This document shows, one piece after another, positions 3,786-20,093 of a DNA stretch of 32,000 nucleotides. Source of the stretch: Pyrodictium delaneyi (GTDB lineage: Archaea; Thermoproteota; Thermoprotei_A; Sulfolobales; Pyrodictiaceae); assembly GCF_001412615.1 (NCBI RefSeq), contig NZ_CP013011.1, positions 420,001 through 452,000 of the forward strand. Direction: 5' to 3'. The notes under the pieces were generated by a model. The model saw nothing but the letters and a program-made list of their open reading frames with translations. It was not told the origin of the DNA and did no database searches. Position numbers and translations under genes: made by a program. Within the stretch, counting starts at the first letter, position 1. Each line of letters opens with the position of its first letter.

Positions 3786-5807
3786 CTAGCGGCCCTTGAA
3801 CTTGGGCTTCCTCTTCTCTAGGAACGCTGTCACGCCCTCGACGACGTCGTCGGTGCTGAACAGTAGGCCGAAGAGGCTACTCTCCAGCGCCATGCCGGTC
3901 CATATGTTTGTCTCCATTCCTATCTGTATTGCGTACTTGGCCGCCATTACTGCTAGTGGCGGCTTTTCAGCTAGCTTCAGCGCTAGCTGACGGACCTCTT
4001 GCTCGAGCCTCTCTGGCGGCACTACCCTGTCTACTAGGCCTAGCTTAGCGGCCTCGTTGGCCGGTATCATGTCACCAGTGTATATAAGCTCCTTGGCACG
4101 GCTCCTGCCTATGAGCCTGGGGAGCCTCTGCGTACCGCCAGCGCCCGGTATGAAGCCCAGGTTGATCTCTGGCTGGCCTAGCATCGCTGTCTCACTAGCT
4201 ATCCTAAAGTCTGCCGCCATTGCCAGCTCTAGGCCTCCGCCGAGAGTATAGCCGTTGAGCGCCGCTATCACGGGCTTTGTGTAGTATTCTAGCTTGAAGA
4301 GTATCTCCTGGAACCTCCTAGAGTACATCATCGCTTTTACCGGCGATATCCCCATGAATGCTGTCACGTCTGCGCCAGCGCTGAAAGCACGGCCACTACC
4401 AGTGAGCACGACTACTCTTATCCTCTCGTCCTCCTCTAGCTCGTCGAGGGTCTCGCCGAGTTCGCGGAGCATCTCGGGGCTTATCGCGTTGAGCTTGCTA
4501 GGCCGGTTGAGCACTATCCAGGCTATCGGCGGCTCTATACGGATTAGCAGAGTCTTCTTCTGTCGCTGCTCTACAGCACCATACTCGTAGAAGCCCTTAC
4601 CAGTCTTGACGCCCAAGCGGCCGTCTTGTACCATCTGCTTTAGCAGTGGGTCCGGCTCATACTCCTCCCAGCCGGTCTTCTGCTTGAGCTTTTCCAGCGC
4701 CTCTACCACCTTGTCTATACCGAACTCGTCGGCGTACTCGAGTATACCCTTAGGGTAGCCGAGGCCCAGCTTGACCGCCTTGTCTATATCGTCGCGGGTC
4801 GCTATGCCCTCGCGAAGCAGGTAGGCCGCCTCGTTTATGCCGGGCGCTAGGATTAGTAGCGGGTCTACCTTCTCGCCAGCCTCCTTGGGTATGTTCGGCC
4901 TCTGGTACTTACCGGGCACCGGATACTCGTAGAAGCCCTTACCAGTCTTGACGCCTAGCTCGCCTTTCTCGAACTTCTCCTTGAACAGCGGGCATGGGTG
5001 CGCCCTGAAGCCGCGCTGCGCCATTGCCTGGAACACGTAGTAGAACACGTCTATGCCGCTGTAGTCGGCTAGCTCGAAGGCGCCCATTGGCAGGCCTAGC
5101 TTGTACTTGAGCGCTGAGTCCACCTCGACTACGCTTGCCTCGCCACGGGCTACCATGTGGCAGGCCTCGTTCAGCACACGGGCTAGTATGCGGTTGACTA
5201 TAAAGCCTGGCACATCCTTGTTGACTACTACCGGCTGTTTGCCGAACCGCTTGGCTAGCTCCACGGTGACGCGTACTGTCTCGTCGCTAGTCTTCTCGCC
5301 CTTTATCACCTCGACTAACGGCATGAGAGGCGGTGGGTTGAAGAAGTGCATCCCTACGACGCGTTCGGGCCTCTTTGTGGCTGCTGCTATTTCTGTTATC
5401 GGTAGGCTGCTAGTGTTGGTGGCTAGGATAGCGTGATCCGGGGCCTTCTCGTCGGCGAAACGGAAGAGCTGTTGCTTGAGCTCGAGCTTCTCGGGTATAG
5501 CCTCTATCATGAAGTTTGTCTCCGACAGCACCCTGGCGAAGTCCTCGGTATAGTTTCCATTCTTATCGATACTCACTACCGTCTTTATTCTCTCCATTAT
5601 CTTGTCTGGGTGTTCACGTAGCTGGCCTTTCTCGTATAGCTTGTCAAGGCTCCACCGTATACGCTTTAGCGCATTACGGAGTATGTCCTCAGATATGTCG
5701 GCCAACCATACCTCGTAGCCAGCAATGGCTGCTACTTCTGCTATACCGTGGCCCATTGTGCCAGCGCCAACCACTGTTATCTTACGTATTCTATCGACCG
5801 ACGCCAT
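3786..5807 (-). CDS. Fused 3-hydroxyacyl-CoA dehydrogenase (N-terminal) / enoyl-CoA hydratase (C-terminal)
   Basis: Rossmann motif VVGAGTMGHGIA, two 3HCDH_C repeats each ending LGVKTGKGFYEY, and a C-terminal crotonase fold (VVLTGSGRAFSAGADV, GGGLELAMAADFRIA). Confidence 0.95.
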   Translation of the reverse strand: MASVDRIRKITVVGAGTMGHGIAEVAAIAGYEVWLADISEDILRNALKRIRWSLDKLYEKGQLREHPDKIMERIKTVVSIDKNGNYTEDFARVLSETNFMIEAIPEKLELKQQLFRFADEKAPDHAILATNTSSLPITEIAAATKRPERVVGMHFFNPPPLMPLVEVIKGEKTSDETVRVTVELAKRFGKQPVVVNKDVPGFIVNRILARVLNEACHMVARGEASVVEVDSALKYKLGLPMGAFELADYSGIDVFYYVFQAMAQRGFRAHPCPLFKEKFEKGELGVKTGKGFYEYPVPGKYQRPNIPKEAGEKVDPLLILAPGINEAAYLLREGIATRDDIDKAVKLGLGYPKGILEYADEFGIDKVVEALEKLKQKTGWEEYEPDPLLKQMVQDGRLGVKTGKGFYEYGAVEQRQKKTLLIRIEPPIAWIVLNRPSKLNAISPEMLRELGETLDELEEDERIRVVVLTGSGRAFSAGADVTAFMGISPVKAMMYSRRFQEILFKLEYYTKPVIAALNGYTLGGGLELAMAADFRIASETAMLGQPEINLGFIPGAGGTQRLPRLIGRSRAKELIYTGDMIPANEAAKLGLVDRVVPPERLEQEVRQLALKLAEKPPLAVMAAKYAIQIGMETNIWTGMALESSLFGLLFSTDDVVEGVTAFLEKRKPKFKGR
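4581..4613. repeat. Copy 1 of a 33-nt perfect direct repeat inside the HAD/ECH gene
   Basis: atactcgtagaagcccttaccagtcttgacgcc is identical at 4581-4613 and 4923-4955. It encodes GVKTGKGFYEY in both 3HCDH_C repeats. Confidence 0.9.
4923..4955. repeat. Copy 2 of the 33-nt perfect direct repeat inside the HAD/ECH gene
   Basis: Same 33-mer as 4581-4613, read directly from the sequence. Confidence 0.9.
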
Positions 5808-5850
5808 GGCTGTTACACCTCTTACCTTTCTCGCTACGGCTGCCCGTTGG

Positions 5851-5860
5851 AGAATATTTA
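5851..5860 (-). promoter_or_regulatory. Candidate TATA box for the HAD/ECH gene
   Basis: The minus strand reads TAAATATTCT about 49 nt upstream of the ATG at 5807. A GAGGTG Shine-Dalgarno-like sequence lies 8-13 nt before the ATG. Confidence 0.3.
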
Positions 5861-5946
5861 GTGTTCAGCTGGGTTAAAAGAGGAGAAGAGCCCGTGGAGA
5901 CCTGGGTATAGGCGGGTAAAACACCCGGGTATATACGCAGGCCTGC

Positions 5947-7155
5947 TTATGTGAGTACGAGCTTTATGCCGAAGAGGTCCTTTAGCATCTGCCTTATTAT
6001 CGTGAGCCTCTGTATATCGTTGGCGCCCTCATATATGGTTGTTATTAGCGCGTCTCTTAGGTACCTCTCTACGCCAGTCTCTATGTCAACGCCCACGCCA
6101 CCGTGGATCTTTATCGCCATGTTTGCTACTCTCTCGGCCACCTCTGTGGCGAAGGTCTTAGCGATGCTTGCCGCTATCACGAATTTCTTGTCGCCCTTGT
6201 CGGCTAGCGTAGCAGCCCAGTAGGCTAGCAGCCTAGCCGCCTCTAGCTGCATCAGCATGTCAGCGAGCTTGAACGCTATACCCTCGAAGCTGATTATTGG
6301 ACGGCCGAAGGCCTGGCGCTGGAGCGCGTAGTTTAGTGCCTTCTCGAACGCACCCTGAGCTATGCCTACGGCCTGTGCAGCTATACCGACACGGGTATGG
6401 TCATAAGTCGAAACTATTACTTTGAAGCCCTGGTCTACCGGACCTACTACGTTCTCCTCAGGGACCTTCACTTCGTCGAGGATGACTTCGTGGGGCCTTT
6501 CGCCACGTAGGCCGGTTACGTTGAAGCGCTGGCCTACTTTGAGGCCCGGGGTGTCACGCTCCACTATGAAGACCGTTATGCCCCACCAACGCTTGTCCTC
6601 CTTAGGTGGGCTTGTCCTCGCAGATACCACGAAGTAGTCCGCCTTGTCAGCGCCCGTTATGAATATCTTCCTACCAGTTATCACGTAATGACCATTAACT
6701 TTCTTGGCACGGGTCTGCATTCCAGCCACGTCGCTGCCGCAGCAGGGCTCGGTATTAGCATGAGCTGCAAACTTTTCGCCACGCGCCACAGGAGTCACAT
6801 ATTGTTTCTTCTGCTCCTCAGTACCGAAGAGGAGGATTGGCGTCGTGAACAGGGCGCGTACAGCTACAGCTGTGCCAAAGGCGGGGCTTACTCGGGAAAG
6901 CTCCTCCATCAAGATAGCTTCCATTAGGTGACCGCCACCCTGGCCACCGTACTCTTCGGGTATACCGACGCCGAAGAGGCCGAGCTTCCGGGCTTCCTCG
7001 AAGAGTTCGTCTGGTATCCTGTCCGTCTTCTCGATCTCCATAGCTCTTGGCTCGAGATGCTCCTCAACGAAACTCCTTACAGCCTTACGGAATAGTTCGT
7101 GTTCTTCTGTAAGTTCGACACGAAAGTCCTCTAGGCTCTGGAAGGGAAGAACCAT
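5947..7155 (-). CDS. Acyl-CoA dehydrogenase
   Basis: 402 aa with ACAD signatures (TEPCCGSDVAG, C-terminal YEGANDIQRLTIIRQ). Confidence 0.95.
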   Translation of the reverse strand: MVLPFQSLEDFRVELTEEHELFRKAVRSFVEEHLEPRAMEIEKTDRIPDELFEEARKLGLFGVGIPEEYGGQGGGHLMEAILMEELSRVSPAFGTAVAVRALFTTPILLFGTEEQKKQYVTPVARGEKFAAHANTEPCCGSDVAGMQTRAKKVNGHYVITGRKIFITGADKADYFVVSARTSPPKEDKRWWGITVFIVERDTPGLKVGQRFNVTGLRGERPHEVILDEVKVPEENVVGPVDQGFKVIVSTYDHTRVGIAAQAVGIAQGAFEKALNYALQRQAFGRPIISFEGIAFKLADMLMQLEAARLLAYWAATLADKGDKKFVIAASIAKTFATEVAERVANMAIKIHGGVGVDIETGVERYLRDALITTIYEGANDIQRLTIIRQMLKDLFGIKLVLT

Positions 7156-7229
7156 CGCCCAGCCCCTCGCCTACCGTTCATGCCCTAGGATTTGCCTAGA
7201 GAGGGAATAAAACGGGATTGGAGGCGGTG

Positions 7230-7775
7230 TTAGCCTTGTTCATCTACCGGCACTAGCTCGTAAGTTAGATAGTTCTCCGGTTGCCTCCGCACCACTTCTA
7301 GTCTGACTTTCATGCCTACACGAAGCTTCTTCGGGTCTGTCTCGCGCACCCATGCCAGTACGTTAACTCCCTGAGGGAACCGGGCTATACCCACCGTATA
7401 GTCTGGGTAGTGAGCAAAGCTCGCAGGTTTAGTGTAGATGATGGTGTAGGTTAGTAGTTCGCCCTCACCTGTTATCTCTATCCACTCCATGTCTCCCCGG
7501 CGGCACTTGGGGCAGTCAGCTTGTGGTGGGAAGTATGTGGCTCCACAATGCTTACACTTGGTAGCATATACCTTGCCTTCAGCGAGGCCCTCAAAGAACT
7601 TACGTATCCGCTCAACGCTTATCGTGTAGCGTATTGATAGCTCTCTCTGGTCGAACCAGAGAGCTGCGCCAGTACGCTGGTCGGGTACTATCGGGAGTCC
7701 GGTGCTCTTCTTCACCTCCTCTACGAACGCTTCTACCTGCTTCATGTACTCCTCCATCTGCTTCTTCTGACTCAT
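7230..7775 (-). CDS. DUF35 OB-fold/zinc-ribbon protein (thiolase-associated)
   Basis: Zinc ribbon CKHCGATYFPPQADCPKC followed by an OB-fold-like C-terminus. It lies immediately downstream of the thiolase, which is the canonical archaeal pairing. Confidence 0.9.
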   Translation of the reverse strand: MSQKKQMEEYMKQVEAFVEEVKKSTGLPIVPDQRTGAALWFDQRELSIRYTISVERIRKFFEGLAEGKVYATKCKHCGATYFPPQADCPKCRRGDMEWIEITGEGELLTYTIIYTKPASFAHYPDYTVGIARFPQGVNVLAWVRETDPKKLRVGMKVRLEVVRRQPENYLTYELVPVDEQG

Positions 7776-7800
7776 CCCGGGCTCACCTCACGACACAGAG

Positions 7801-8982
7801 CTAGGGCTGTAGAGAGTAGATCATCACGTAAGCATAGTGCCCCGTGCCACCTACGTTATTGGCTACAGCCATGCCGTTCTTTACTGGTACTTGGCGGCCC
7901 TTGTCAGCCTCGCCGCGCAGCTGCTTGGTCAGCTCAACCGCCATGCCTACGCCCGTGGCGCCTAGCGGGTGACCCTTAGCCTTGAGGCCGCCGCTCACGT
8001 TTACCGGTATGAGGCCACCAATGTATGTCTGGCCCTCGCGTATCAGCTTGTAGCCCTCGCCAGGCTTGGCAAAGCCTAGTTCCTCGTATGTCAGTATCTC
8101 AGCTATAGTGAACGCGTCATGTACCTCCGCGGCGTCGAGGTAACGTGCCGGGTTCTCTGGGTCAATGCCCGCTTTCTTGTAGGCCATCCTGGCTGCCTCC
8201 ATTACGCCACGGCGTAGGAGGAAGTCCGGCCTCCTACTGATATTGGAAGTGTCGGAGGCGGTGCCTATCGCTTTTATCCAGACGGGAGTATCGGTGAGCT
8301 TACGGGCTATCTCCTCGCTAGCAAGTATGACCGCAGCTGATCCGTCTGTTATGGGGCTACAGTCGAAGAGCTTGAGAGGCCAGGCTATGTAGCGTGACTG
8401 CATACACTGTTCAAGCGTTATCTGGCGAGGGAAGTGCGCCTTGGGGTTCATGCTGGCGTAGTAGTGGTTCTTGACCGCAACCTTGCAGAGATCCTCCTCA
8501 GTGGCGCCATAGCGGGCCATGTAGGCTGTAGCATAGAGTGCATAGTAGCCGGGGAAGGTTAGCCCGAAATTCTCGAACTCCCAGAAGTAGTTGCCTGCAC
8601 GACCTATCAGTTCGACTACGGTGGGCGTAGGAGACTCGTTCATCTTCTCAACGCCAACTACAAGGACTATGTCAGCTTCACCACTGGCCACTATATCATG
8701 GCCAAGCTTTATTGCTGCACTCCCAGTAGCACACGCTGCCTCTACTCTGACCGTGCCACGGGGTGTAAGACCTGCATATTCGTTGATGACAACTGCGGGA
8801 AGCGGTTCGCTACTCCAAACACCCACATTCCCATAGACTACATAATCTATATCCTCCTGGCCTATACCAGCGTCATTCAATGCTTGTTTGATGCTCTCCC
8901 ATGCTAGTTCTGCAAGGCTTACATCATTGCGGTACCCATACTTAGAGTGCCCCACACCAACTATAGCTACTCGACGGCCCAA
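7801..8982 (-). CDS. Thiolase (SCPx/archaeal-type acetyl-CoA C-acyltransferase)
   Basis: Active-site Cys context VEAACATGSAA, C-terminal GHPLGATG and NNVGGTG. The start is TTG. Confidence 0.93.
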   Translation of the reverse strand: MGRRVAIVGVGHSKYGYRNDVSLAELAWESIKQALNDAGIGQEDIDYVVYGNVGVWSSEPLPAVVINEYAGLTPRGTVRVEAACATGSAAIKLGHDIVASGEADIVLVVGVEKMNESPTPTVVELIGRAGNYFWEFENFGLTFPGYYALYATAYMARYGATEEDLCKVAVKNHYYASMNPKAHFPRQITLEQCMQSRYIAWPLKLFDCSPITDGSAAVILASEEIARKLTDTPVWIKAIGTASDTSNISRRPDFLLRRGVMEAARMAYKKAGIDPENPARYLDAAEVHDAFTIAEILTYEELGFAKPGEGYKLIREGQTYIGGLIPVNVSGGLKAKGHPLGATGVGMAVELTKQLRGEADKGRQVPVKNGMAVANNVGGTGHYAYVMIYSLQP

Positions 8983-9195
8983 GAGGAATCCACACCCGAC
9001 TCCACTTATGGGGCCAATACATGATACGTCAGAGCAGACATGTCAAAGGCTTAGCCGGGCACCACACCTATTCCACACCGTATTAAGCCTAGCCCCTTGA
9101 TCAACGGAATCGATCGTGACGAAAGCTTCAATCAACAATCCTAACTCTTTATTTACTTCAACACACATATGAACCATTCACGGAGGCTAGAGAAC

Positions 9196-9534
9196 ATGGA
9201 CTTTGAACTTCTACGCAAAACATTCCTGGAGGTAGTTGAGAAAGCAAAAGCAAAGATAGGAGACGAGATGAAGACATGGAATCGTGCGTTCCAATTCATA
9301 CTAGACGATGGCACTGAGTTCTACGTGGAGATCAAGAATGGAGAGGTTACAGTACAACAAGGTCGTCATCCTTCCCCCGTAGCTACGCTCTCAACAGACT
9401 CTAATACACTGGAGAAAATCCTTCAGGGAGAACTCGACGCAATGGCAGCATTCATACGGGGCAAAATGAAGATCACTGGCAACGTCCTCGAGACAATTAA
9501 ACTCCGTAAAATACTAGAAGCAGCAAAAGACTAG
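9196..9534 (+). CDS. SCP2 (sterol carrier protein 2) domain protein
   Basis: Contains LSTDSNTLEKILQGELDAMAAFIRGKMKITGNVLETIKL, a typical SCP2 C-terminal pattern. The ATG at 9196 is preceded by GGAGG 9 nt upstream. An alternative ATG lies at 9169. Confidence 0.8.
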   Translation: MDFELLRKTFLEVVEKAKAKIGDEMKTWNRAFQFILDDGTEFYVEIKNGEVTVQQGRHPSPVATLSTDSNTLEKILQGELDAMAAFIRGKMKITGNVLETIKLRKILEAAKD

Positions 9535-9663
9535 ATACACAGATACCACAGCTATAATATATTCTGAATCAAGCCACCTACACAAATCAACTCAAACTAC
9601 GATTTATTTACACTATCTAATCTAGATTCATATATTTAGACCTAGTATTGCGATTCCATAAGT

Positions 9664-9689
9664 CTAGCATGTTAAGTTCTACATGCTAG
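9664..9689. promoter_or_regulatory. Inverted repeat CTAGCATG-N10-CATGCTAG in the AT-rich spacer upstream of the acyl-CoA synthetase gene
   Basis: An 8-bp perfect inverted repeat read directly from the sequence. Function unknown (operator or RNA hairpin). Confidence 0.3.
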
Positions 9690-9911
9690 TATAGTTCTTC
9701 CACATAATATTTTTGGATATTAATCAGCATTATTATCACGAAAACCGCGTTTAATATTATCTTATGTGGGCAAAATTAAATATTTTGTTGGCTTGTTCCC
9801 ACTACCGGGGTACTCAAAATATCCCGCAAGTCTTTTTGATATAGTTTTATATGATTCTAACGTCATCACGATGAATATCCAAGCTTTGTATATCAGAAAT
9901 GGGTGTTTGCA

Positions 9912-11717
9912 ATGGCCGCTTCAGCCCGTGAACCGGGGCCGAGAGAGCTCACTCGTCAACTCCCCTCGAGCGAGGAAGTCTTTAGGACGTTTATAGAGCC
10001 ACGGATATGGACACGCTTCTACGACGAGTTTGTGCCTCGCGAGATAAAGATCCCAGAAGTACCGCTCTTCAAGCTCCTCGACGATTCAGCTACGAGATTC
10101 CCCAAACGGTCTGCATTCATCTTCTTCGGCCGACGTGTATCATACGAAGAGTTTCTACGTTCAGCCAATAGTTTTGCACGAGCCCTACGCGAAAACTGGG
10201 GGATAGACCGAGGCGATAGAATCGCCCTCTTCCTTCCGAATTCTCCTCAGTTTGCCATAGCTTTCTACGGTGCTCTAAAAGCTGGAGCTACGGTTACTCC
10301 CGTTAACCCGCTATACACCGGCTTCGAGCTAGCACGGCAGATACGAAAGAGTAATGCTAGGATCCTCGTAGCACTCGATATGTTCAAGGACAAGGTAGAG
10401 GAGGCCATAAGCGAGCACGGGGCAAAGCTGGATGCAGTTATCTATACTGGGATAGACGACTATCTGCCAGGTATTCTAGCGATACTCTACCGGCTCAAAG
10501 AGAGGAAACCGAAGATACGTTATGACGGTAAGAAAACGGTGAAATTCAAAGAGCTCGTCAAAAGCTACGAACCAAACCCACCGAGCGTCAAAATAGACCC
10601 GAAAGAGGACTTAGCAGCCCTAATGTTTACCGGCGGTACTACCGGTGTCCCTAAGGGAACTATGCTAACACACTACAACATTGTAGCTAATGTACACCAG
10701 ATAGATGCGTGGTGGAAGCCCGGCGCCAAAGGAGAGGACATAATGGTTGGTGTGCTCCCCTGGTTCCACATTTATGGCCAGACAGCAGTACTTCATACTG
10801 GTATATTCCGTGCAGCAACTATCCTTGTCTATCCACGGTTTGATCTAGATAGGATACTAAGAGACATAGAGAAGTATAAGCCAAACATATTCCATGGTGT
10901 TCCCACGATATACTCTAAGATAGTGAGTCGCCCAGACATCACGAAGTATAATCTACGGAGTATAGAGGTTTGTATAAGCGGTGCTGGTGCTTTACCAAAA
11001 GCTGTTGCCGAGAAGTTTGAGAAGCTTACCGGCGCCAAGATTCGCGAGGGCTATGGATTAACAGAGACCAGCCCAGTGACACACATAAACCCAATCTACG
11101 GAAAATACAAGATAGGTAGCATAGGCATACCTGTACCCAATACTCTAGCAGCTGTAGCTGACCCGGAGAAGCCGGTTCTCCTCCCACCAGGCCAGATAGG
11201 CGAGATAGTGATCAGTGGCCCTCAAGTGATGAAAGGCTACCTAGACATGGACGAGGAGAACAAGAAGGTGTTCTTCGAGTGTTGTGGCCGCCGCTGGCTA
11301 CGCACAGGCGACATTGGTTACATGGACGAGGAAGGCTTCTTCTTCATAGTCGACAGGAAAAAAGACGTGATAAAGTACAAGGGCTATAGCGTGTACCCGA
11401 GAGAAATAGAAGAGGTACTATACATGCACGACTGTGTCACCGATGCAGCCGTAATAGGTGTACCTCATCCACACGTCGGCGAGAGGATCAAAGCGTTCGT
11501 CACATTAAAGCCCGAGTGCAAAGGCAGGATAAAACCAGAGGACATCATAGAGTTCGCCCGTAAGCATCTAGCACCATACAAGGTGCCCAAAGAGGTAGAG
11601 ATACGTGACGAACTGCCTAAGAGTGCTGTCGGCAAGATACTCCGCCGCATACTACGCGAAGAGGAGCTAAAGAAGCTACAGTCTAGTGAACCACGCCGTA
11701 CTGGAACCAGCCAGTAG
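9912..11717 (+). CDS. Long/medium-chain acyl-CoA synthetase (AMP-forming)
   Basis: AMP-binding motifs MFTGGTTGVPKG, YGLTET and TGDIGYMDEEGFFFIVDRKKDVIKYKG. I chose the ATG at 9912; the ORF track starts at an upstream GTG at 9903. Confidence 0.93.
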   Translation: MAASAREPGPRELTRQLPSSEEVFRTFIEPRIWTRFYDEFVPREIKIPEVPLFKLLDDSATRFPKRSAFIFFGRRVSYEEFLRSANSFARALRENWGIDRGDRIALFLPNSPQFAIAFYGALKAGATVTPVNPLYTGFELARQIRKSNARILVALDMFKDKVEEAISEHGAKLDAVIYTGIDDYLPGILAILYRLKERKPKIRYDGKKTVKFKELVKSYEPNPPSVKIDPKEDLAALMFTGGTTGVPKGTMLTHYNIVANVHQIDAWWKPGAKGEDIMVGVLPWFHIYGQTAVLHTGIFRAATILVYPRFDLDRILRDIEKYKPNIFHGVPTIYSKIVSRPDITKYNLRSIEVCISGAGALPKAVAEKFEKLTGAKIREGYGLTETSPVTHINPIYGKYKIGSIGIPVPNTLAAVADPEKPVLLPPGQIGEIVISGPQVMKGYLDMDEENKKVFFECCGRRWLRTGDIGYMDEEGFFFIVDRKKDVIKYKGYSVYPREIEEVLYMHDCVTDAAVIGVPHPHVGERIKAFVTLKPECKGRIKPEDIIEFARKHLAPYKVPKEVEIRDELPKSAVGKILRRILREEELKKLQSSEPRRTGTSQ

Positions 11718-11993: not shown

Positions 11994-12914
11994 TCAACTG
12001 CCTAGCTTTTCGCGCAGCTTCTTTATCATTACTGGTAGGAACTTGTAGAGGTCTGCAACTACACCGTAGTCGGCGTACTGGAATATTGGGGCGTTCTTGT
12101 CCTTGTTGATAGCGACTATTATCTTGCTATCTAGCGTCGCAGCCATATGTTGCGGCGCGCCAGATATGCCTATCGCTATGTAGAGCTTAGGTCTTATCTT
12201 CTTACCCGATATGCCTATCCACCGGTCCTCCGTGAGCCAGCCATAGTCTGCCGCTATAGGCCTAGAGCCTCCTACTACACCACCGAGCAGCTGGGCTAGC
12301 TCCTCTGCCATGGCTAGGTCTTCTTTCTTGCGGAAGCCGCGGCCGACACCAACTACTACTTCTGCCGTCTCTATGTTTACGGCTTCACGTTTCTTCGGCT
12401 CTACAGCTGTTACCTTCACCTTGGGCTCCGGGGCCTTCACCTCGACAATCTCAGCACCAGTCTCACCTGTATAGCTGTACACACCAACCGGGATAGTGAC
12501 GACAACTGGTAGTTGTGAGGAGATTTTTGCTATAGCACGGCCACCCAATACCTGGCGTTTTACCGTTATCTTATCCTCTGTGAGTTCTACTAAGGTTGCT
12601 TCGGTGAACATAGGTATCTTCTTCTGAGCTGCTAGTCTTGCACCGACATCAGTATTGTTTTTAGCAGCTATTGCAGCGACTATGCTGGGCTGTAGCTCGT
12701 CATAGAGCTTTGCTAGCACCTCTGTTATCTGATCGGGGCTAGGTTGCTCTACGCCAGCAAGGTAGACACGCTTGAATACCTTGAAGCTATGTTTCTTTAC
12801 ATCCTCGACATTCCCGAAGACTAGGGCATAGGCTTCAAGGCCATGCTTCTCAGCGAACCCTGCTAGCTCAGATAGCTGACTAGGTTTCTCCGCATAGAGG
12901 AGTGCACGCACCAT
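11994..12914 (-). CDS. etfA: Electron transfer flavoprotein, alpha subunit
   Basis: C-terminal FAD-binding region GISGAPQHMAATLDSKIIVAINKDKNAPIFQYADYGVVADL. Confidence 0.93.
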   Translation of the reverse strand: MVRALLYAEKPSQLSELAGFAEKHGLEAYALVFGNVEDVKKHSFKVFKRVYLAGVEQPSPDQITEVLAKLYDELQPSIVAAIAAKNNTDVGARLAAQKKIPMFTEATLVELTEDKITVKRQVLGGRAIAKISSQLPVVVTIPVGVYSYTGETGAEIVEVKAPEPKVKVTAVEPKKREAVNIETAEVVVGVGRGFRKKEDLAMAEELAQLLGGVVGGSRPIAADYGWLTEDRWIGISGKKIRPKLYIAIGISGAPQHMAATLDSKIIVAINKDKNAPIFQYADYGVVADLYKFLPVMIKKLREKLGS

Positions 12915-12930
12915 TATAAGTCACCAATCC

Positions 12931-13776
12931 TTAAGCTTTTATAACACCCTCTTTTATGAGGGCGTCTATGAGCTTCTCGGCTATCTCTTCTAGACTCTCG
13001 CCCTCGATTATAACGTTCTTGCGCTGAACCGTCACAACGCGTAGTTCTTCTAGGCTTGGCTTAGCTGGCAGCCCTACACCGAGGTCGGCGAGGCTATACT
13101 TCTTGATAGGCTTGCGGAAGGCACGGCGTATCTGTATGAGCGTTGGTATACGTGGCTTATTTATCTCGCCCGTAACGCTCACCACAGCAGGTGTAGGCGA
13201 TTCTACTGTTTCTAGCCTATCCTCTAGGTCCCGCTTTACCCGGATAACACCGTCAACATACTCTATACTTCTAGCGTAGCTAAGGAACGGTATTCCTAGT
13301 AGGGTTGCTACCCGAGCACCTACTTGTGACGATATCATATCCATCGATGCTTCACCAGTTATGTATAGGTCGAAGTCTCCAAGCTTCGTAAGCAGCGATG
13401 CGAGCACAGCAGCTGTGGTGTTCGGGTCACCAGGTATTAGCGCCTCATCCACGACCACATGCGCCTCGTCGGCACCCATTGCAAGCGTCTCGCGTATGGC
13501 TTGTTCGATTTCACGGCTCCTCTTCGCTAAGGGTCCCCATGTTAGGGCTGAGACGACAACGATCTTTCCACCATACTTGTCGCGGAGCTGTATGGCGGCC
13601 TCCACGGCGTTCTTGTCGTATTCGCTTACAGCTAGGGGTATATTGTCTACGTCTACCTCTCCACTAGTCTTAGACCGCAGCATGTTAGGGTCGAGAGAGG
13701 CTTTGACAAGGACAGCTATATTGAGGGGCAAGGGGCGGTCCGACCTCCATATCCTCTCAATGTTTTGAAACGGCAT
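12931..13776 (-). CDS. etfB: Electron transfer flavoprotein, beta subunit
   Basis: ETF-beta pattern (NIAVLVKASLD..., VVSALTWGP, ITGEASMD). It lies 16 nt upstream of etfA. Confidence 0.9.
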   Translation of the reverse strand: MPFQNIERIWRSDRPLPLNIAVLVKASLDPNMLRSKTSGEVDVDNIPLAVSEYDKNAVEAAIQLRDKYGGKIVVVSALTWGPLAKRSREIEQAIRETLAMGADEAHVVVDEALIPGDPNTTAAVLASLLTKLGDFDLYITGEASMDMISSQVGARVATLLGIPFLSYARSIEYVDGVIRVKRDLEDRLETVESPTPAVVSVTGEINKPRIPTLIQIRRAFRKPIKKYSLADLGVGLPAKPSLEELRVVTVQRKNVIIEGESLEEIAEKLIDALIKEGVIKA

Positions 13777-13861: not shown

Positions 13862-15991
13862 TTATGTCCCACCCGAAGGGCTAGAATTTTCCTCGCTTAG
13901 GCTCTCAGCAAGCAACTCGGCTATATCCTTCACTTCCATCCCGTAGTCCGGCGCTTCCGCTGCGAGCATCGTGTTACAGAATGGGCACGCTACTGCCAGT
14001 ACCTGAGCCTTAGTAGACGCTGCCTCCTCGACACGGACCCGGCTCATACGCTTACCTATCTTGATGTCATAGAACACGCCGCCGCCACCGCCGCCACAGC
14101 AGAAGCTCCTCCACCGGCTCCTCGGCATCTCTACGACCTTCTCCACCGTGTCTGACAGTACTCTTCTAGGCTCCTCGTAGACGCCATTCCAGCGGCCAAG
14201 GTAGCACGGGTCGTGGTAGGTAGCCTTCACATGCAGCCTGGTTCTAGGCTTCACCTCGCCTTCCTGTAATAGGCGTGCTAGCAGCATTGAGTGATGCACG
14301 ACCTCAACTCTTACGCCGTACCTCGGGTATTCGTGGCGGAACACGTTGAAGCCATGAGGGCATGTTACTAGCAGCTGCTTGAACCGGAAGCGGGATAGCA
14401 GTTCAGCATTCTGCTTCACTAGCTCAACAAACATTAGTTCGTCGCCGATACGGCGTGCTGGCTCGCCACAGCACTGCTGTTCTAACGATACGGCGACCTT
14501 TACTCCCGCGTGTTTTAGTACCTTGAGGAGGGCCTCGATGGTGTCACGCAGCCTTGGGTCGTAGGCTGCCGCGCAGCCGACCCAGAGGAGGTAGTCGTAC
14601 TCCTCGTTCTCTTTTGCCTCTTCGACTAGACCTCTCTCTATGAGGCTGTTTAGCCATTCCTCTTTCTCGACCGGGTTAGCCCCGTATGGGTTACCAGCGC
14701 GCATTAGGTTGTAGCTTACCTGTAGCAGCTCGTCGGGCACATGTTCGCCGCGCGATACCAGACCACGGCGTAGGTCTAGAACTGTCTCGACATGGTGTAT
14801 CAGTACTGGGCAGTTGTATACACACGCGCCACAGGTAGCACAGCTCCACAGAACATCCGGTTCTACGTGCGCTGGTACTAGTTCCTCATTCCATTCCTCC
14901 TGCCTCATAGCCTCCCGAAGCTTCAGCACGAGGTTCATCGGGGAGAGTGGCTTACCGGTAGCTACTGCGGGGCACGCGTTGTGACAGCGTGCACACCGGG
15001 TACAAGCGTCGTAGTCCATTCTTTGCTTCCATGTTGTATCGGCTAGCGTTACTACTCCGAAGGTCTTGCCTTCCTCGACAAGCTTCTCTACATCAGGTAT
15101 TGGTTTGAATGATGCAGGATGCTCTAGCCTCGCATAGAACGTGTTGAAGAATCCACTGACAAGTATGTGGGCTAGCTTTGTGCCCGGTATAGTGGCCAGT
15201 AACAGCACACTAACCGCTAGATGTACAACCTGTGTTACACGGTATAGTGCGAGGAACCTGGCTGGCGTTAGACCCTCTAATACTTGTGACAAGAGTTTAC
15301 CAGAGAAGTCCCACCAGGGTATCCCTGTAACAGATAGGTGGGCAGTAGCAGTCATAGCGTCCAAGACCATGCCGGTAATCACTATTATCGCCAGCCATAG
15401 TAGTACTAGACTGTCCTCCAAGCTGTTGGGGAGCCCTGGCGTGAGTCCTAATGCGCGCCGAATACCGGCCGCCACGGTACCGACTAGTAGTAGTAGGCCG
15501 CCAAAGTTCACAAGCATACGGAATATTGTGAATACTATGCCGCCTGGATATCTTGTGGCGGGAGCATCTATGACATAGATTATCCCAGCTACTGCAAGGA
15601 GCACAGCACCTAGATATATCAACAAGTGTATTGTGCCTCCACGTCTCTCGCGAAGAACACGGGTCTGAAGCAAGCCCACTCTTATGAAATTCCATAGCCT
15701 TGTTGCAATGTTGTTTAGGGGTAGCTGCTGCCCACCACGAGTCCATCTAGCAATATACCGGTTCAATCCATACAAGAAGAGCAGGGAGCCTGGAACTATG
15801 AGGAGCACGCGGAGAAGATCAAGCTCAGCGCCACTTATGACGGGGTAACGGAACGGACCGCCCGGAGTAACGTGGCACGCCATACAGTTTCCACGTAGCT
15901 CCCCAATAGTAGTAGCGGCCGCTTCTACTGGCTGAAACACAGCAATCACAGCAGCTACTAGGAATAGCCACCGGAGCCGCCTCACAGCCAA
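13862..15991 (-). CDS. Membrane-bound Fe-S oxidoreductase (HdrD/GlpC/DsrK-like with a NarI-like TM domain); candidate ETF:quinone oxidoreductase
   Basis: N-terminal signal-like segment, about 5 TM helices, two 4Fe-4S ferredoxin motifs (CTRCARCHNACP, CATCGACVYNCP) and two CCG domains (QQCCGEP, SFCCGGGGGG). It is the first gene of the operon with etfBA. The start is TTG or GTG. Confidence 0.85.
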   Translation of the reverse strand: MAVRRLRWLFLVAAVIAVFQPVEAAATTIGELRGNCMACHVTPGGPFRYPVISGAELDLLRVLLIVPGSLLFLYGLNRYIARWTRGGQQLPLNNIATRLWNFIRVGLLQTRVLRERRGGTIHLLIYLGAVLLAVAGIIYVIDAPATRYPGGIVFTIFRMLVNFGGLLLLVGTVAAGIRRALGLTPGLPNSLEDSLVLLWLAIIVITGMVLDAMTATAHLSVTGIPWWDFSGKLLSQVLEGLTPARFLALYRVTQVVHLAVSVLLLATIPGTKLAHILVSGFFNTFYARLEHPASFKPIPDVEKLVEEGKTFGVVTLADTTWKQRMDYDACTRCARCHNACPAVATGKPLSPMNLVLKLREAMRQEEWNEELVPAHVEPDVLWSCATCGACVYNCPVLIHHVETVLDLRRGLVSRGEHVPDELLQVSYNLMRAGNPYGANPVEKEEWLNSLIERGLVEEAKENEEYDYLLWVGCAAAYDPRLRDTIEALLKVLKHAGVKVAVSLEQQCCGEPARRIGDELMFVELVKQNAELLSRFRFKQLLVTCPHGFNVFRHEYPRYGVRVEVVHHSMLLARLLQEGEVKPRTRLHVKATYHDPCYLGRWNGVYEEPRRVLSDTVEKVVEMPRSRWRSFCCGGGGGGVFYDIKIGKRMSRVRVEEAASTKAQVLAVACPFCNTMLAAEAPDYGMEVKDIAELLAESLSEENSSPSGGT

Positions 15992-16031
15992 GACACCGAT
16001 TTGGACAAACGGAGCGATTACTACTAAGGTG

Positions 16032-16037
16032 TTAAAA
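16032..16037 (-). promoter_or_regulatory. Candidate TATA-like element for the Fe-S oxidoreductase-etfBA operon
   Basis: The minus strand reads TTTTAA about 43 nt upstream of the start at 15991. Confidence 0.2.
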
Positions 16038-16079
16038 GGGTATCTCAGTCTATAGCGAGATCCCTCAAGCCGTCATATA

Positions 16080-16943
16080 TTAGTCGTCCTTTGTTAGAAC
16101 GGTAATTATATTGCTTACGATACGCTTATGGTCTTCCTCGTCTCTAGCTATTGCTTCGAGAAGCGGCTCATATATGCTCCTATGCGGTTCCTGAAGAACT
16201 CTAGACAGCAACGGTGAGACAAGCGCCATGAAATATTCGGCATCTATATCATTCTCCATAGATGCTAGAAGTCTAAGCTTATCAACGAGCATGCCCTTAT
16301 TTGCTTCCTGCTTAGACGATAGAAGCTTAATTATCTCTTTAAGTCTGTTTATGAACAATACTGAAGAGGAGCGGCTGCAGATAAACGAACCTCCATTACC
16401 ATACAATAATTGATAAATTTTTTTATATATATGTGCATGTGCGCTACTCTCAATTGATATGTAGCGAAAAGCAGATGAAATAGGCTCTTCAAAGTGCTCC
16501 GCAAGCTTAACATAAACCTCTGCTGCAAGCTTCTCTATCTCAATTGCACATGACAATATCTCCTTGAACATTTTCTTTTCGAAACCGACATCGCCAGCAG
16601 CTTTAACAGACTGCGGACTTAAGCCTACTATATGAAGAGCTTCCTTATCATTACCTTCTTTTATTAATTCAAGTACCCGGCTTACTGTATCACCTGCAAT
16701 ATTCTCACCGCTCGCATAAACTAACGGGACAGCTACCAGAAGCCTCGCAGCTATATCAATTTGTCTATTATATAATTTACGAACCACCTTGTAAGCAGCC
16801 GATGGCGAGCGAAGCAGGAGAGTGCTATAGGGGATTCCATAAAGTCTCTGAGAAACAGAGTTAAGTACCAGCAGAAATCCTGGTGCACGACTACTAAAAT
16901 ATTCTTCAATGCTTCTTTCTTTTTTCTCATACAAGGTCAGCAC
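16080..16943 (-). CDS. Orphan protein: unknown N-terminal domain plus a C-terminal ferritin-like/rubrerythrin-like four-helix bundle
   Basis: 287-aa ORF in the AT-rich islet with a GTG start. Residues ~124-280 show paired helices: AIEIEKLAAEVYVKLAE / ISIESSAHAHIY, and ASMENDIDAEYF / IARDEEDHKRIV (ExxH). Confidence 0.6.
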   Translation of the reverse strand: MLTLYEKKERSIEEYFSSRAPGFLLVLNSVSQRLYGIPYSTLLLRSPSAAYKVVRKLYNRQIDIAARLLVAVPLVYASGENIAGDTVSRVLELIKEGNDKEALHIVGLSPQSVKAAGDVGFEKKMFKEILSCAIEIEKLAAEVYVKLAEHFEEPISSAFRYISIESSAHAHIYKKIYQLLYGNGGSFICSRSSSVLFINRLKEIIKLLSSKQEANKGMLVDKLRLLASMENDIDAEYFMALVSPLLSRVLQEPHRSIYEPLLEAIARDEEDHKRIVSNIITVLTKDD

Positions 16944-17017
16944 ATCACCGCTACTCGCTCTACTTACGACGCTAGATTATACACTGGCGTATGGTCATAC
17001 ATAACTCTTTCTAGTAG

Positions 17018-17026
17018 TTTATATAA
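17018..17026 (-). promoter_or_regulatory. Candidate TATA box for the 16080-16943 gene
   Basis: The minus strand reads TTATATAAA about 78 nt upstream of the GTG at 16943. A weaker TATAAT-like element lies at about 16974-16983. Confidence 0.25.
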
Positions 17027-17060
17027 TAACCAACAATCTTAATAACTATTAGCTTTATAC

Positions 17061-17070
17061 TATTTAAATA
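17061..17070 (+). promoter_or_regulatory. Candidate TATA box (perfect palindrome TATTTAAATA) for the 17094-17807 gene
   Basis: Its centre is about 28 nt upstream of the ATG at 17094. This fits a leaderless crenarchaeal transcript. Confidence 0.4.
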
Positions 17071-17093
17071 ATCGAAATATATTAGAAATATGA

Positions 17094-17807
17094 ATGTTTA
17101 ACGAATGTTGCGGGATTTATGAGACACTGCCATCGCTAACAAAGAGTTTAATAGACAAAGACTCTGAGTTTCATGCCTCATCAGAGGTTGAGACTGTGAC
17201 ACACGGTAATCCAATAAATAAGAGTAAAATAACAGACAATGTTATAAAACAAGTTAATAGAATTGATACAAATTGGCGGCAAATAGACCGCATAATTACA
17301 ACAATGAACACAATAGTATTAGGCTATCAAGTGGTTATAGGGAAAATATTCGGGAAAAATTTCAGTGGAATGACACAAATGCTTTTACGTGAAGTGGGAA
17401 GCTTACTTTCAAAACTAGTAGATAGTTACGTTAATGGCTCGGATTATATAAAAAATGATTTAGCAGAAGCAATAAAAAGGAGTCTTCTCGAAACAGGTAT
17501 TGCAAAGAAAGTCTACGTACATGAATTACCAGCAGATACGCGCTCTCAGAGGATTATACGAAAGTTCAAGATCAAGATAAAGGACAGCATATTTAGACCA
17601 GTATATAAGACACTGGCAACATATGGCTACAGGGAATTCCCCTTAAGTCCCGAAGGTCTTCTTGTAACAGCTATTATACTTAGGCATCTACAAGAGAAGG
17701 GCAACACAGACACTAGACTGACCATGCATGCACTCATACCCCAAGATAGCGAGGAAGATCTGGAAATAATAGTAGAACAGGTCAAAACACACATTACTGG
17801 CAAGTAG
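17094..17807 (+). CDS. Orphan protein, family not recognised (weak V4R-like pattern at the C-terminus)
   Basis: 237-aa ORF with an ATG start and AT-rich codon usage like its divergent neighbour. It has no TM segment and no catalytic motif that I recognise. Confidence 0.55.
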   Translation: MFNECCGIYETLPSLTKSLIDKDSEFHASSEVETVTHGNPINKSKITDNVIKQVNRIDTNWRQIDRIITTMNTIVLGYQVVIGKIFGKNFSGMTQMLLREVGSLLSKLVDSYVNGSDYIKNDLAEAIKRSLLETGIAKKVYVHELPADTRSQRIIRKFKIKIKDSIFRPVYKTLATYGYREFPLSPEGLLVTAIILRHLQEKGNTDTRLTMHALIPQDSEEDLEIIVEQVKTHITGK

Positions 17808-17945
17808 TTCTCAAGGCTTTCTAATCGTAGTGCTCTATTATCATAGCTTCTATATTTCCATACTCTTCCTAATAACAATGTTTTGAATATTTTATAAATT
17901 GTAATAAATTGTATTCATAAGAGAGTTACCGTAATTGCTGGGTCG

Positions 17946-18033
17946 TGGCGCCGGGGGCGGGATTTGAACCCGCGCGCCCCCGCGGGGCACCGGCTCTCAA
18001 GGCCGGCCCCTTAGACCGCTCGGGCACCCCGGC
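17946..18033 (-). tRNA. tRNA-Ser (anticodon UGA), type II with a long variable arm and genomically encoded CCA
   Basis: The reverse complement folds as acceptor GCCGGGG/CCCCGGC, D-arm CCC-GAGCGGTCTAA-GGG, anticodon stem CCGGC/GCCGG with loop CTTGAGA, variable arm TGCCCCGCGGGGGCGC, T-arm GCGGG-TTCAAAT-CCCGC, discriminator G, then CCA. Confidence 0.9.
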
Positions 18034-18179
18034 GCCCAGTGGAAGGGAGCCTCGCCCCAGGTAGTCTTGCCTAGGATCTTGTAAGAGGGTATTATTGCTT
18101 ATAGCCGTATTGAGTACATAGTGTTTTAAAGAAAGTCTAGCTGTTTATAGATATGAAGTATAGAACTAGTCTGCCAGGG

Positions 18180-18488
18180 TTAGCGTAGCCGTATCTCGAT
18201 GTATACATCCTCGGGCACGCGGACTCTCATTATCTGCCTCATGACGCGCTCGTCTGCATCGAGTATAACTAGGCGCTTGTGGATACGTAGTTCCCACTTG
18301 TCCCACTTCTTGGAGCCCTCGCCGTGTGGAAGCTTTAGCGTAGGCACTATCAACCTTTTAGTTGGTAGTGGTATCGGACCGCGAATGCGTACGCCAGCCT
18401 TCTGAGCTATCTTGCGTATCTGGTCCACTACCGCGTTTAGGTTCTGGACATTCGTGCTCCAGAGCCTTATCTCTGCACGCTGCACCAT
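18180..18488 (-). CDS. rps10: 30S ribosomal protein S10 (uS10)
   Basis: 102 aa, [18 protein letters not shown]...[10 protein letters not shown], in the typical position after EF-1alpha. Confidence 0.95.
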
Positions 18489-18773: not shown

Positions 18774-20093
18774 TTACTTCTTCTTAATCTCTACCTTGGC
18801 AGGCTTGACCTCCATTACTACGCCAATGCCTACAGTCTTACCCATGTCTCTCATAGCGAAGCGGCCTAGCTGTGGGAACTCACTGTACTTCTCAATGACC
18901 ATTGGCTTTATAGGCTTGAACTTTACTATGGCAGCGTCGCCCATCTTTAGGAACTGTGGGTTCTTCTCGACTACCTGGCCGGTCCTCGGGTCTAGCTTAG
19001 CCTGTATCTCGGTTATCCTAGCAGCTACGCTAGCTGTGTGGGCGTGTATTACTGGGCTGTAACCTACGGTGACAGCGCTGGGATGCCATATGATGAAGAT
19101 CCTTGCTGTGAACTCCTCAGCTACTGTTGGCGGGTTGTCTGGGTGGCCTGCCACATCACCACGCTTGATGTCCCTCTTGGAGATGCCACGGACGTTGAAG
19201 CCTATGTTGTCGCCAGGCTCTGCCTGCTGTATCGGCTGGTGGTGCATCTCGATGCTACGGACCTCGCCGACCACGCCCGGAGGCATGAAGACTACCTTGT
19301 CGCCTACCTTGAGTACACCGGTCTCTACACGGCCTACTGGTACTGTACCTACACCGGGTATTGTATAGACGTTCTGTATGGGTATCCTTAGCGGCTTGTC
19401 TACTGGCTTCTTAGGCGGCTGTATGTAGTTGTCTAGAGCCTCTACTAGGGTTGGGCCGTTGTACCAAGGCATGTTGGGGCTGCGCTCGATGAGGTTCTCG
19501 CCAGTCCAGGCGGATACTGGTATAAATGGTATCTGATCAACCTTGTAGCCGAGACCCTTCATGAACTTCTTGAGTATAGCTACTATCTGCTCATACCTCT
19601 GCTGGCTGTAGTTCACGTCAGGAGCGTCCATCTTGTTGACAGCAACTATGAGCTGGTCGATACCCATTGTCTTTGCTAGGATGAGGTGCTCACGGGTCTG
19701 ACCCTCAGCGCTCATACCGGCCTCAAATTCACCCTTCCTTGCAGATACTACTAGGATGGCTGCGTCTGCCTGGCTAGCACCAGTAATCATGTTCTTGATG
19801 AAGTCTCTGTGACCGGGGGCGTCGATGATGGTGAAGTAGTACTTCTTGGTCTCGAACTTTACGAAGCTCAGGTCAATCGTTACACCGCGCTCGCGCTCCT
19901 CCTTTAGCCTGTCCATTAGCCAGGCGAACTTGAACGACTCCTTACCCTTCTTCTTTGCCTCCTCCTCTAGTGTCCTTAGCGTCTTCTCGTCGACGAAGCC
20001 TAGACGGAATAGCAGGTGGCCTACTAGCGTGCTCTTACCGTGGTCTACGTGGCCAATTACCACTAGGTTTATGTGAGGCTTCTGCTGGCTCAT
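18774..20093 (-). CDS. tuf: Translation elongation factor EF-1alpha (aEF1A)
   Basis: [17 protein letters not shown] and NKMD GTPase motifs; 439 aa. Confidence 0.97.

Follow-up and report, generated by a model that had tools for sequence, protein, structure and literature searches.

What is a sharply AT-rich stretch with two genes of unusual composition doing directly beside the 3′ end of a tRNA-Ser(UGA) gene in the archaeon Pyrodictium delaneyi, and how did it come to be there? The stretch, called the islet below, occupies positions 15992–17945 of the window, by which we mean the whole 32,000-nucleotide (nt) segment analysed (contig NZ_CP013011.1, positions 420,001–452,000 of the forward strand). 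It holds two open reading frames (ORFs) only, ORF1 and ORF2, which are divergently transcribed from a 150-bp AT-rich spacer with TATA-like boxes (Table 1), as a preliminary description of this DNA had stated. That description took the islet for a horizontally acquired two-gene cassette at a tRNA 3′ end. We assign a probability of roughly 0.55 to a different account, in which the islet is a recombinant patch of at most 1.9 kb from a lower-GC relative sharing the locus, with resident ORF1 overwritten and an ORF2 allele placed between the tRNA and ORF1.

The sharp drop in G+C that first drew attention to the islet was recovered by sliding-window analysis. G+C is 0.380 (38.0%) across 15992–17945 compared to 0.529 (52.9%) for the remainder of the window; the published genome mean of P. 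delaneyi is 53.88% (PMC5556600). The lowest-G+C stretch of 1954 bp in the window coincides with the islet (minimum 0.382 at 16001), the next-lowest elsewhere being 0.448, and with 300-bp windows no value above 0.44 is reached over approximately 16050–17999, the minimum being 0.323 at 16950–17249; the left margin (15992–16079) is only mildly low, at 0.443. Codon usage also sets both genes apart from their neighbours, as had been claimed. The G+C fraction at third codon positions (GC3) is 0.361 for ORF1 and 0.345 for ORF2 (0.333 if ORF2 is counted from GTG 17196), against a mean of 0.586 (SD 0.078, minimum 0.475) for the 23 other window ORFs, which corresponds to z scores of −2.9 to −3.2. The shift is seen in individual amino acids, with CTT plus TTA making up 0.58 of Leu codons in ORF1 and ORF2 (0.13 in the other window ORFs), AAT 0.79 of Asn codons (0.24) and GAA 0.59 of Glu codons (0.25).

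Comparison with 117 fetched loci (L-numbered contigs, 1.4 Mb), on which all locus comparisons below are based, places ORF1 at the same position in three other lineages. In two related lineages, represented by L115/L116 and L117, the contigs start inside tRNA-Ser(UGA), which is followed after approximately 165–177 bp by an ORF1 homologue and then by etfD-like, etfB and etfA genes, with a convergent acyl-CoA synthetase gene also present in L115; this is the gene order of the window minus ORF2. The L115-type proteins share 80.6% (EtfD-like), 86% (EtfB), 84% (EtfA) and 94.7% (acyl-CoA synthetase) amino acid (aa) identity with those of the window. In a very close relative, for which two independent assemblies (L090 and L091) are 100% identical, the ORF1 homologue lies directly upstream of etfD. 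These arrangements indicate that the order tRNA-Ser(UGA), ORF1, etfD, etfB, etfA is ancestral for the clade and, as read from gene order, ORF1 is an ancestral occupant of the locus that was not newly inserted. A separate lineage of approximately 45% G+C carries an ORF1 homologue in a different setting that is stable there (MoeA, OMP decarboxylase, ThiS, an unknown gene, ORF1, tRNA-Gly).

The ORF1 allele found in P. delaneyi is nevertheless far more diverged than the gene next to it. Against L091, the first 186 codons of etfD show 94.6% aa and approximately 95% nt identity with a synonymous divergence (dS) of 0.12, compared to 63.9% aa identity, a dS of 1.57 and a ratio of non-synonymous to synonymous divergence (dN/dS) of approximately 0.15 for ORF1. 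This 13-fold jump in synonymous divergence takes place within approximately 60 bp at the left edge of the patch, where dS is 0.58 over the last 40 codons of ORF1 and 0.03 over etfD codons 1–40. Nucleotide identity to L091 follows the same course, with 55–59 of every 60 positions matching in etfD up to 16037, 41 of 58 (71%) in 16038–16095, 47–52 of 60 at the 3′ end of ORF1 (83–87% as listed by feature) and 35–39 of 60 in its 5′ half; upstream of ORF1 no homology to L091 was detected. Such a sharp break with discordant divergence on its two sides argues for replacement by a divergent allele and not for a new insertion, so that one part of the cassette idea, a separate history for the patch, stands, and the other, a newly inserted pair of genes, does not. 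As to which allele is out of place, GC3 for ORF1 and the etfD N-terminus is 0.36 and 0.48 in the window and 0.46 and 0.44 in L091, and changes polarised with L115 run 59 GC>AT versus 34 in reverse when window-specific and 33 versus 43 when L091-specific; this contrast, together with the GC>AT lean of the window-specific changes, marks the window allele as the displaced one. Third-position differences in ORF1 between the window and L091 comprise 95 transitions and 38 transversions (a ratio of approximately 2.5), which lies between the recently diverged etfD (22:5) and the deeper L115 branch (approximately 1.1), suggesting that the allele came from a third lineage within this clade. In L090, the region upstream of the ORF1 homologue (430–800) has a G+C of 0.54–0.58 and bears no relation to any sequence of the window; it lacks long ORFs and gave no match in Rfam.

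ORF2 is the sole islet gene missing from this position in ORF1-bearing related loci, being absent between the tRNA and ORF1 in L115–L117 and, in L090, from the 930 bp that precede ORF1. Its homologues in relatives of 62–64% G+C are chromosomal genes with native GC3 (0.72–0.83). In L004/L005/L095, L006, L007 and L093, ORF2 lies 280–305 bp from the 5′ end of tRNA-Ser(UGA) and is divergent from it, the ORF2/tRNA-Ser(UGA) pair of L007/L093 and L004 being located 2–7 kb downstream of EF-1alpha–S10. L097 has the same spacer and ORF2 beside tRNA-Ser(GGA), with a breakpoint inside the tRNA and an unrelated 3′ flank; in L094 (46% G+C, Pyrofollis-like) ORF2 is 232 bp downstream of tRNA-Ser(GCU) on the same strand; and in the window it is 138 bp from the tRNA 3′ end and convergent with it. 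The 3′ 31 nt are identical in all these tRNA-Ser genes, and the UGA and GGA genes also share their 5′ 33 nt. When L097 38–126 is set against L093 7634–7720, the ORF2 homologue and spacer are near-identical, but the anticodon (GGA in L097, UGA in L093), the variable arm and the 3′ flank differ, a pattern that suggests recombination with its breakpoint within the tRNA gene, switching the isoacceptor at a fixed locus. A single inversion deriving the tRNA/ORF2 geometry of the window was considered and rejected, because inverting the pair keeps divergent genes divergent. In a neighbour-joining tree, ORF2 falls inside the Pyrodictiaceae subfamily (287 of 300 bootstraps), nearest to a lower-GC Pyrofollis-like pair (GC3 0.39–0.48), on a long branch that is twice any other (mean distance 0.72 vs 0.36 among the others). 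No second ORF2 copy was found in P. delaneyi.

A patch of foreign composition that begins right after a tRNA 3′ end could also be the decayed remnant of an integrase-borne element, a virus or plasmid inserted at tRNA-Ser(UGA) with ORF1 and ORF2 as cargo, and the ORF1 relative of the 45%-GC lineage likewise abuts a tRNA 3′ end (tRNA-Gly). A related locus does show such a structure: in L004 5683–7695 (also in L005 and L095), the intact tRNA-Ser(UGA) is followed, 1.9 kb further downstream and in the same orientation, by a degenerate copy of its 3′ approximately 58 nt, and the two bracket a segment of lower G+C (0.40–0.55 versus 0.62–0.68) with an AF2212-like/PIN toxin–antitoxin pair. Because of this remnant flanked by attachment (att) repeats in L004/L005, we regard the 3′ flank of tRNA-Ser(UGA) as a recombination hotspot. 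The window itself, however, yielded no partial tRNA copy in 15400–18300, either by repeat search or by blastn-short (word 7, E ≤ 50), although the same search finds the copy in L004/L005, and no integrase, transposase or other mobile-element domain was detected in ORF1, ORF2 or the flanking genes (Pfam, NCBIfam and PHROG), in agreement with the preliminary description, which had reported no integrase, transposase or convincing att repeat. Nor were viral relatives of ORF1 or ORF2 present in 2.9 million viral contigs, and PHROGs and BFVD, the latter in a fold search with ORF2, returned nothing convincing (best E approximately 0.06 and 8e-3). With ORF1 a fixed resident in three other lineages and the ORF2 family chromosomal and native in composition, a decayed element is largely refuted for ORF1 and is, as an explanation of the whole islet, very unlikely. 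The earlier suggestion that the tRNA 3′ end served as an integration site thus holds for the relative, with neither att nor integrase to extend it to the window.

Under the recombinant-patch account, the P. delaneyi clade would have started from a locus of the order S10, tRNA-Ser(UGA), ORF1, etfD-like, etfB, etfA. DNA from a lower-GC relative with the same locus architecture would then have exchanged the resident ORF1 for a deeply diverged AT-rich allele, and the same DNA would have introduced ORF2, or moved it, into the interval separating the tRNA from ORF1. One crossover, on the left, is visible as the break at the ORF1/etfD junction (approximately 16040–16095); the other, on the right, would presumably fall at the invariant tRNA-Ser gene or inside it. 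The mode would be homologous or illegitimate recombination at the tRNA-flank hotspot, as opposed to integrase-mediated insertion. The islet resembles small tRNA-flank islets and xenologous allele replacements of prokaryotes in its compositional and codon anomaly, its location at a tRNA 3′ end, its near-identical flanks, its synonymously saturated patch and the att-bracketed remnant in a relative; it differs from such islets in that the patch lacks integrase, att and mobile genes, and in that one of its genes is an overwritten positional orthologue. A sharp AT-rich islet at a tRNA end thus need not be an inserted element, since most of it can be, as here, an overwritten resident gene plus one extra gene, with tRNA-Ser genes acting as recombination anchors at the locus.

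Several observations weigh against this account, and some of them fit evolution in place instead, in which native, vertically inherited genes drifted under a local AT mutation bias (e.g. deamination where the DNA is heavily transcribed or frequently single-stranded) and weak selection on accessory genes of low expression, while small local rearrangements positioned ORF2. The differences between the window and L091 in ORF1 are mainly transitions, an excess (95:38) that, going by the kinds of substitution, is also expected from local deamination-driven mutation, and the codon shifts CTC>CTT, CTA>TTA, AAC>AAT, GAG>GAA and AAG>AAA are all C:G>T:A changes. ORF1 homologues are AT-richer than their neighbours in other lineages as well (GC3 0.50–0.53 vs 0.63 in L115; G+C 0.39–0.43 vs 0.44–0.46 in L002/L088), so that the family itself may account for part of the skew. 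In other lineages ORF1 is decaying, L115 and L117 having independent frameshifts and P. abyssi an 84-aa fragment, and the ORF2 family is native to Pyrodictiaceae and remains beside tRNA-Ser. Evolution in place is nevertheless unlikely in our assessment: a regional mutation process is not expected to stop so sharply as a 13-fold dS jump within approximately 60 bp at a gene boundary, a dN/dS of approximately 0.15, with every invariant residue kept, speaks against relaxed selection in P. delaneyi, third-position substitutions run both ways (72 GC>AT versus 41 AT>GC), and passing from the divergent tRNA/ORF2 geometry of relatives to the convergent one of the window needs at least two separate single-gene inversions.

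The recombinant patch faces further difficulties of its own. ORF2 and ORF1 stand side by side in none of the sampled genomes, and the donor was not found there; the right-hand crossover is unseen because no close relative's sequence spans the tRNA–ORF2 interval; and more than one event is needed, given that the L091 branch of ORF1 is also long (83 unique changes) and the L090 upstream flank is unrelated. Which lineage recombined is inferred from composition only, and the functions suggested for ORF1 and ORF2 are drawn from gene position and from fold predictions whose Foldseek scores are modest (E 1e-3 to 1e-2).

The divergent arrangement of ORF1 and ORF2 around a common 150-bp AT-rich promoter region, and the atypical composition that they share in P. 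delaneyi, had suggested a co-functioning two-gene module of an undescribed kind. This proposal fails on co-occurrence: none of 37 loci (10 with ORF1 relatives and 27 with ORF2 relatives) carries both genes, and their conserved neighbours differ, ORF1 being found with etfD/etfBA and ORF2 with tRNA-Ser or Roadblock/LC7. A joint module is therefore already contradicted and hardly credible; the two genes are functionally independent. Both genes with the same composition are not found at this locus in all relatives, and neither encodes a well-characterised housekeeping protein, so that the original finding is reshaped and not refuted. The islet is an ordinary small genomic islet, whose genes are poorly characterised yet classifiable.

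The two proteins, which the preliminary description could not place in any family, can both be assigned at the level of fold. ORF1 matches Pfam Rubrerythrin (PF02915) with 34.2 bits (cutoff 22.8, E 3.8e-8) over aa 128–183 only, and its family profile retrieves TM1526 (1vjx) from the PDB sequences. The AlphaFold2 (AF2) model of ORF1, with a mean predicted local distance difference test score (pLDDT) of 81, consists of an all-helical N-domain (approximately aa 1–110) and a C-terminal helical bundle, for which Foldseek returned 1vjx, 2fzf, 4eru and 3qhb (YciF and symerythrin among them) at probability 1.0 with target template-modelling scores (TMt) of 0.59–0.72 (0.66–0.72 for the matches on which the ferritin-like placement is based). 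Candidate metal ligands read from the alignment are E137, E165/H169, E230/E236 and E269/H272. The second metal motif is canonical (E230/E236 and E269-x2-H272), the first is not (E165-S166-x2-H169, where Ser takes the place of the canonical Glu found in TM1526), and C132 and C189 are invariant in the family alignment. No C-terminal rubredoxin-like Cys4 domain of the kind that marks a rubrerythrin sensu stricto is present, the protein ending with the bundle and lacking CxxC pairs. The model and these motifs are consistent with ORF1 probably being a ferritin-like, di-metal carboxylate protein. It is like the known ferritin-like diiron-carboxylate proteins (erythrin/TM1526/PF1190/YciF; 1vjx, 2fzf, 2gs4, 3qhb) in its bundle, Rubrerythrin match and E269-x2-H272, and unlike them in its 115-aa helical N-domain, its E165-x3-H169, its lack of a rubredoxin domain and its etfD/etfBA neighbours.

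The N-domain of ORF1 (aa 1–115) carries the invariant motif VLN..Q..YG..Y..L...SPS.A.K and appears private to the family: no fold relative was found, the search of PDB sequences was empty, and a profile search returned family members only, with no other domain architectures. A DNA-binding helix-turn-helix (HTH) assignment was not adopted, as it came from a single weak HTH_psq match (E 0.053). The family is tiny, with seven clusters for the full protein and four more for the N-domain in 5.8 billion proteins. ORF1 homologues are split by a frameshift between the N- and C-domains at different positions in L115 (232–1073) and L117 (218–1077), and in P. abyssi (PABY_01580) only an 84-aa N-domain fragment is annotated, a pattern that looks like decay or domain fission of the gene in lineages other than P. 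delaneyi. To judge from its conserved position, ORF1 may be linked to the beta-oxidation electron-transfer genes for EtfD and the electron transfer flavoprotein EtfAB. The neighbouring genes of the window match the EtfD–EtfAB module (a 709-aa dicluster plus CCG protein ahead of etfB/etfA, and an acyl-CoA dehydrogenase/thiolase/hydratase cluster), which as described has no ferritin-like member; here the module only adjoins the islet, with ORF1 upstream. A by-product of the analysis is thus a ferritin-like family of very few members whose position ties it to the EtfD/EtfAB genes of Pyrodictium.

Searches of Pfam, NCBIfam, PHROGs and PADLOC assign ORF2 to no family, and it is placed by structure only, as V4R/TRAPPC3/H-NOX-like. 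Its start may be GTG 17196, as annotated by NCBI and supported by the homologues, which align from approximately residue 41–47. ORF2 has 16 close relatives of approximately 195 aa, and among 1.84 billion proteins its family makes up 27 clusters at 50% identity. The AF2 model (pLDDT 76.8, predicted template-modelling score, pTM, 0.74) shows helices over residues 9–100 followed by four strands and two helices, and TRAPPC3 (6aq3), PoxR/MopR/DmpR sensor domains and H-NOX lead the top 50 Foldseek matches in the PDB, with modest scores (best E approximately 1e-3, range 1e-3 to 1e-1; probability up to 1.0; TM approximately 0.3–0.50). Neither Pfam V4R (PF02830) nor TRAPP_Bet3 (PF04051) matched ORF2 or 28 family members at E ≤ 1, and profiles run against PDB sequences gave chance matches only. 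Podar et al. 2008 (PMC2253512) and Tran et al. 2024 (PMC10933270) have described the V4R/TRAPPC3 superfamily, in which the sheet is tethered to a helix by Zn-binding cysteines (V4R, Thor-TRAPPC3) or by a Ser/Asn hydrogen bond (mouse TRAPPC3) (PMC10933270). The ORF2 family alignment has no conserved Cys; S131 and S151-P-E are invariant, N38 is near-invariant, and small residues are conserved in the long helices. In its predicted two-layer architecture, with long N-terminal helices and a four-stranded sheet, ORF2 may resemble the V4R/TRAPPC3(Bet3)/H-NOX fold; it differs from V4R/TRAPPC3 in having no sequence-level match, no conserved Zn-site Cys and a TM of only 0.36–0.50.

The distant members of the ORF2 family (31–41% identity), which are not near tRNA-Ser, provide a second likeness to that fold in their neighbours. 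In L102, L103, L104, L107 (=L092), L108, L109, L112 and L113, a Roadblock/LC7 gene of 114–119 aa follows directly (in L109 it precedes), the six neighbours scanned matching Pfam with E values of 1e-11 to 4e-24; Pyrodictiaceae copies differ in lying beside tRNA-Ser and not beside Roadblock. A V4R/TRAPPC3-like plus Roadblock pair may be conserved in archaea from hydrothermal metagenomes. Taken with the predicted structure, these neighbours are consistent with ORF2 probably being a small dimeric hydrophobic-ligand-binding protein of V4R/TRAPPC3 fold. In L103 (201–278) and L112 (1040–1115), a tRNA-Ile(GAU) gene lies approximately 180–360 bp upstream of the distant ORF2-family gene, on the same strand.

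A broader proposal would make the ORF2 family an undescribed V4R/TRAPPC3-like family that pairs elsewhere with Roadblock/LC7 in a minimal prokaryotic TRAPP/Ragulator-like unit and is tied in Pyrodictiaceae to tRNA-Ser, the islet being a product of such shuffling. The tie is suggested by the presence of the family beside three isoacceptors (UGA, GGA and GCU) in three geometries; if true, it would mean that ORF2 was moved by recombination at invariant tRNA-Ser ends, or that it acts on tRNA-Ser or serine-related metabolism. We consider this proposal speculative and give it little credence, though a Pfam-less V4R/TRAPPC3-like family with Roadblock/LC7 pairing in its distant members bears on the prokaryotic roots of TRAPP/Ragulator-type modules. 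A P. delaneyi proteomics paper (PMC8105010) mentions neither the ORF1 nor the ORF2 protein.

Table 1. Coordinates of the islet and its flanking features in the window (strand as given; a dot marks features without strand).
Feature	Position	Strand	Remarks
etfA	11994–12914	−	Pfam ETF_alpha
etfB	12931–13776	−	Pfam ETF
EtfD-like membrane Fe-S oxidoreductase	13862–15991	−	709 aa; Pfam 4Fe-4S dicluster and two CCG domains
Left junction of patch	16038–16095	.	identity to L091 drops
ORF1	16080–16943	−	287 aa (NCBI: 'ferritin family protein', 284 aa)
ORF1 C-terminal domain (aa ~120–287)	16080–16586	−	putative ferritin-like four-helix bundle
ORF1 N-terminal domain (aa 1–115)	16599–16943	−	all-helical, family-specific
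Divergent intergenic spacer	16944–17093	.	150 bp; G+C 0.293
ORF2	17094–17807	+	237 aa from ATG 17094, or 203 aa from GTG 17196 (NCBI)
AT-rich spacer, ORF2 stop to tRNA 3′ end	17808–17945	.	G+C 0.297
tRNA-Ser(UGA)	17946–18033	−	CCA encoded; ARAGORN; Rfam tRNA 50.5 bits
Ribosomal protein S10	18180–18488	−	right-hand native flank; 87–88% aa identity to L004/L007
EF-1alpha	18774–20093		follows S10; 94–97% aa identity to L004/L007

The right border of the AT-rich patch coincides with the 3′ end of tRNA-Ser(UGA), the patch starting at 17945 and the tRNA at 17946. The S10 gene and the tRNA gene share a strand, the tRNA gene lying 146 bp downstream; the 5′ 33 nt and 3′ 31 nt of the tRNA gene are identical to those of tRNA-Ser genes (UGA, GGA and GCU) of relatives, and its variable arm is of the L115 type. 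The divergent spacer holds the TATA-like boxes TTTATATAA (approximately 17018) and TATTTAAATA (approximately 17060). In this spacer, TTTAAATA at 17063–17070 lies approximately 23 nt ahead of ATG 17094, a spacing that fits a leaderless ORF2 mRNA if it acts as a promoter. On the minus strand, TATAAT approximately 32 nt ahead of GTG 16943, followed by GGTGAT, forms a putative ORF1 promoter. The spacer separating the ORF2 stop from the tRNA 3′ end contains two perfect tandem copies of the 10-mer ATAAATTGTA (17894–17913). An Rfam scan of the islet and of the L090, L115 and L117 flanks detected nothing beyond tRNA.

The EtfD-like gene is of native composition and is the conserved downstream neighbour of ORF1. 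Beyond it, etfB and etfA belong to a larger beta-oxidation cluster (3786–11717), whose genes encode, according to Pfam, acyl-CoA dehydrogenase, hydratase/dehydrogenase, thiolase, SCP2 and acyl-CoA synthetase. On the other side of the islet, an S10 gene followed approximately 50–120 bp downstream by a same-strand tRNA-Ser(GGA) was seen in L008, L009, L012 and L028, representing Desulfurococcaceae, Acidianus/Sulfolobales and Acidilobaceae among the S10 matches listed from 185,579 species genomes (distant archaea, best 70% identity to the query). The tRNA at the S10-adjacent place reads UGA in P. delaneyi, compared to GGA in these Desulfurococcaceae, Sulfolobales and Acidilobaceae loci, and L007/L093 have no tRNA directly after S10.

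Elsewhere in the window, a second and milder G+C dip was observed at 9000–10500 (0.416 in a 1-kb window), which takes in an intergenic region, the SCP2 gene (9169–9534; G+C 0.451, GC3 0.475) and the beginning of the gene for acyl-CoA synthetase. An outlier in the opposite direction is found at 1833–3718, where two ORFs have a G+C of 0.64–0.65 and a GC3 of 0.77–0.78, compared to a window mean of 0.586; an ArsA/ParA-type ATPase is encoded by one of them, and the other falls in no Pfam family. This pair is preceded by a DUF6036 nucleotidyltransferase-like ORF (1061–1369), which may belong to a toxin–antitoxin pair.

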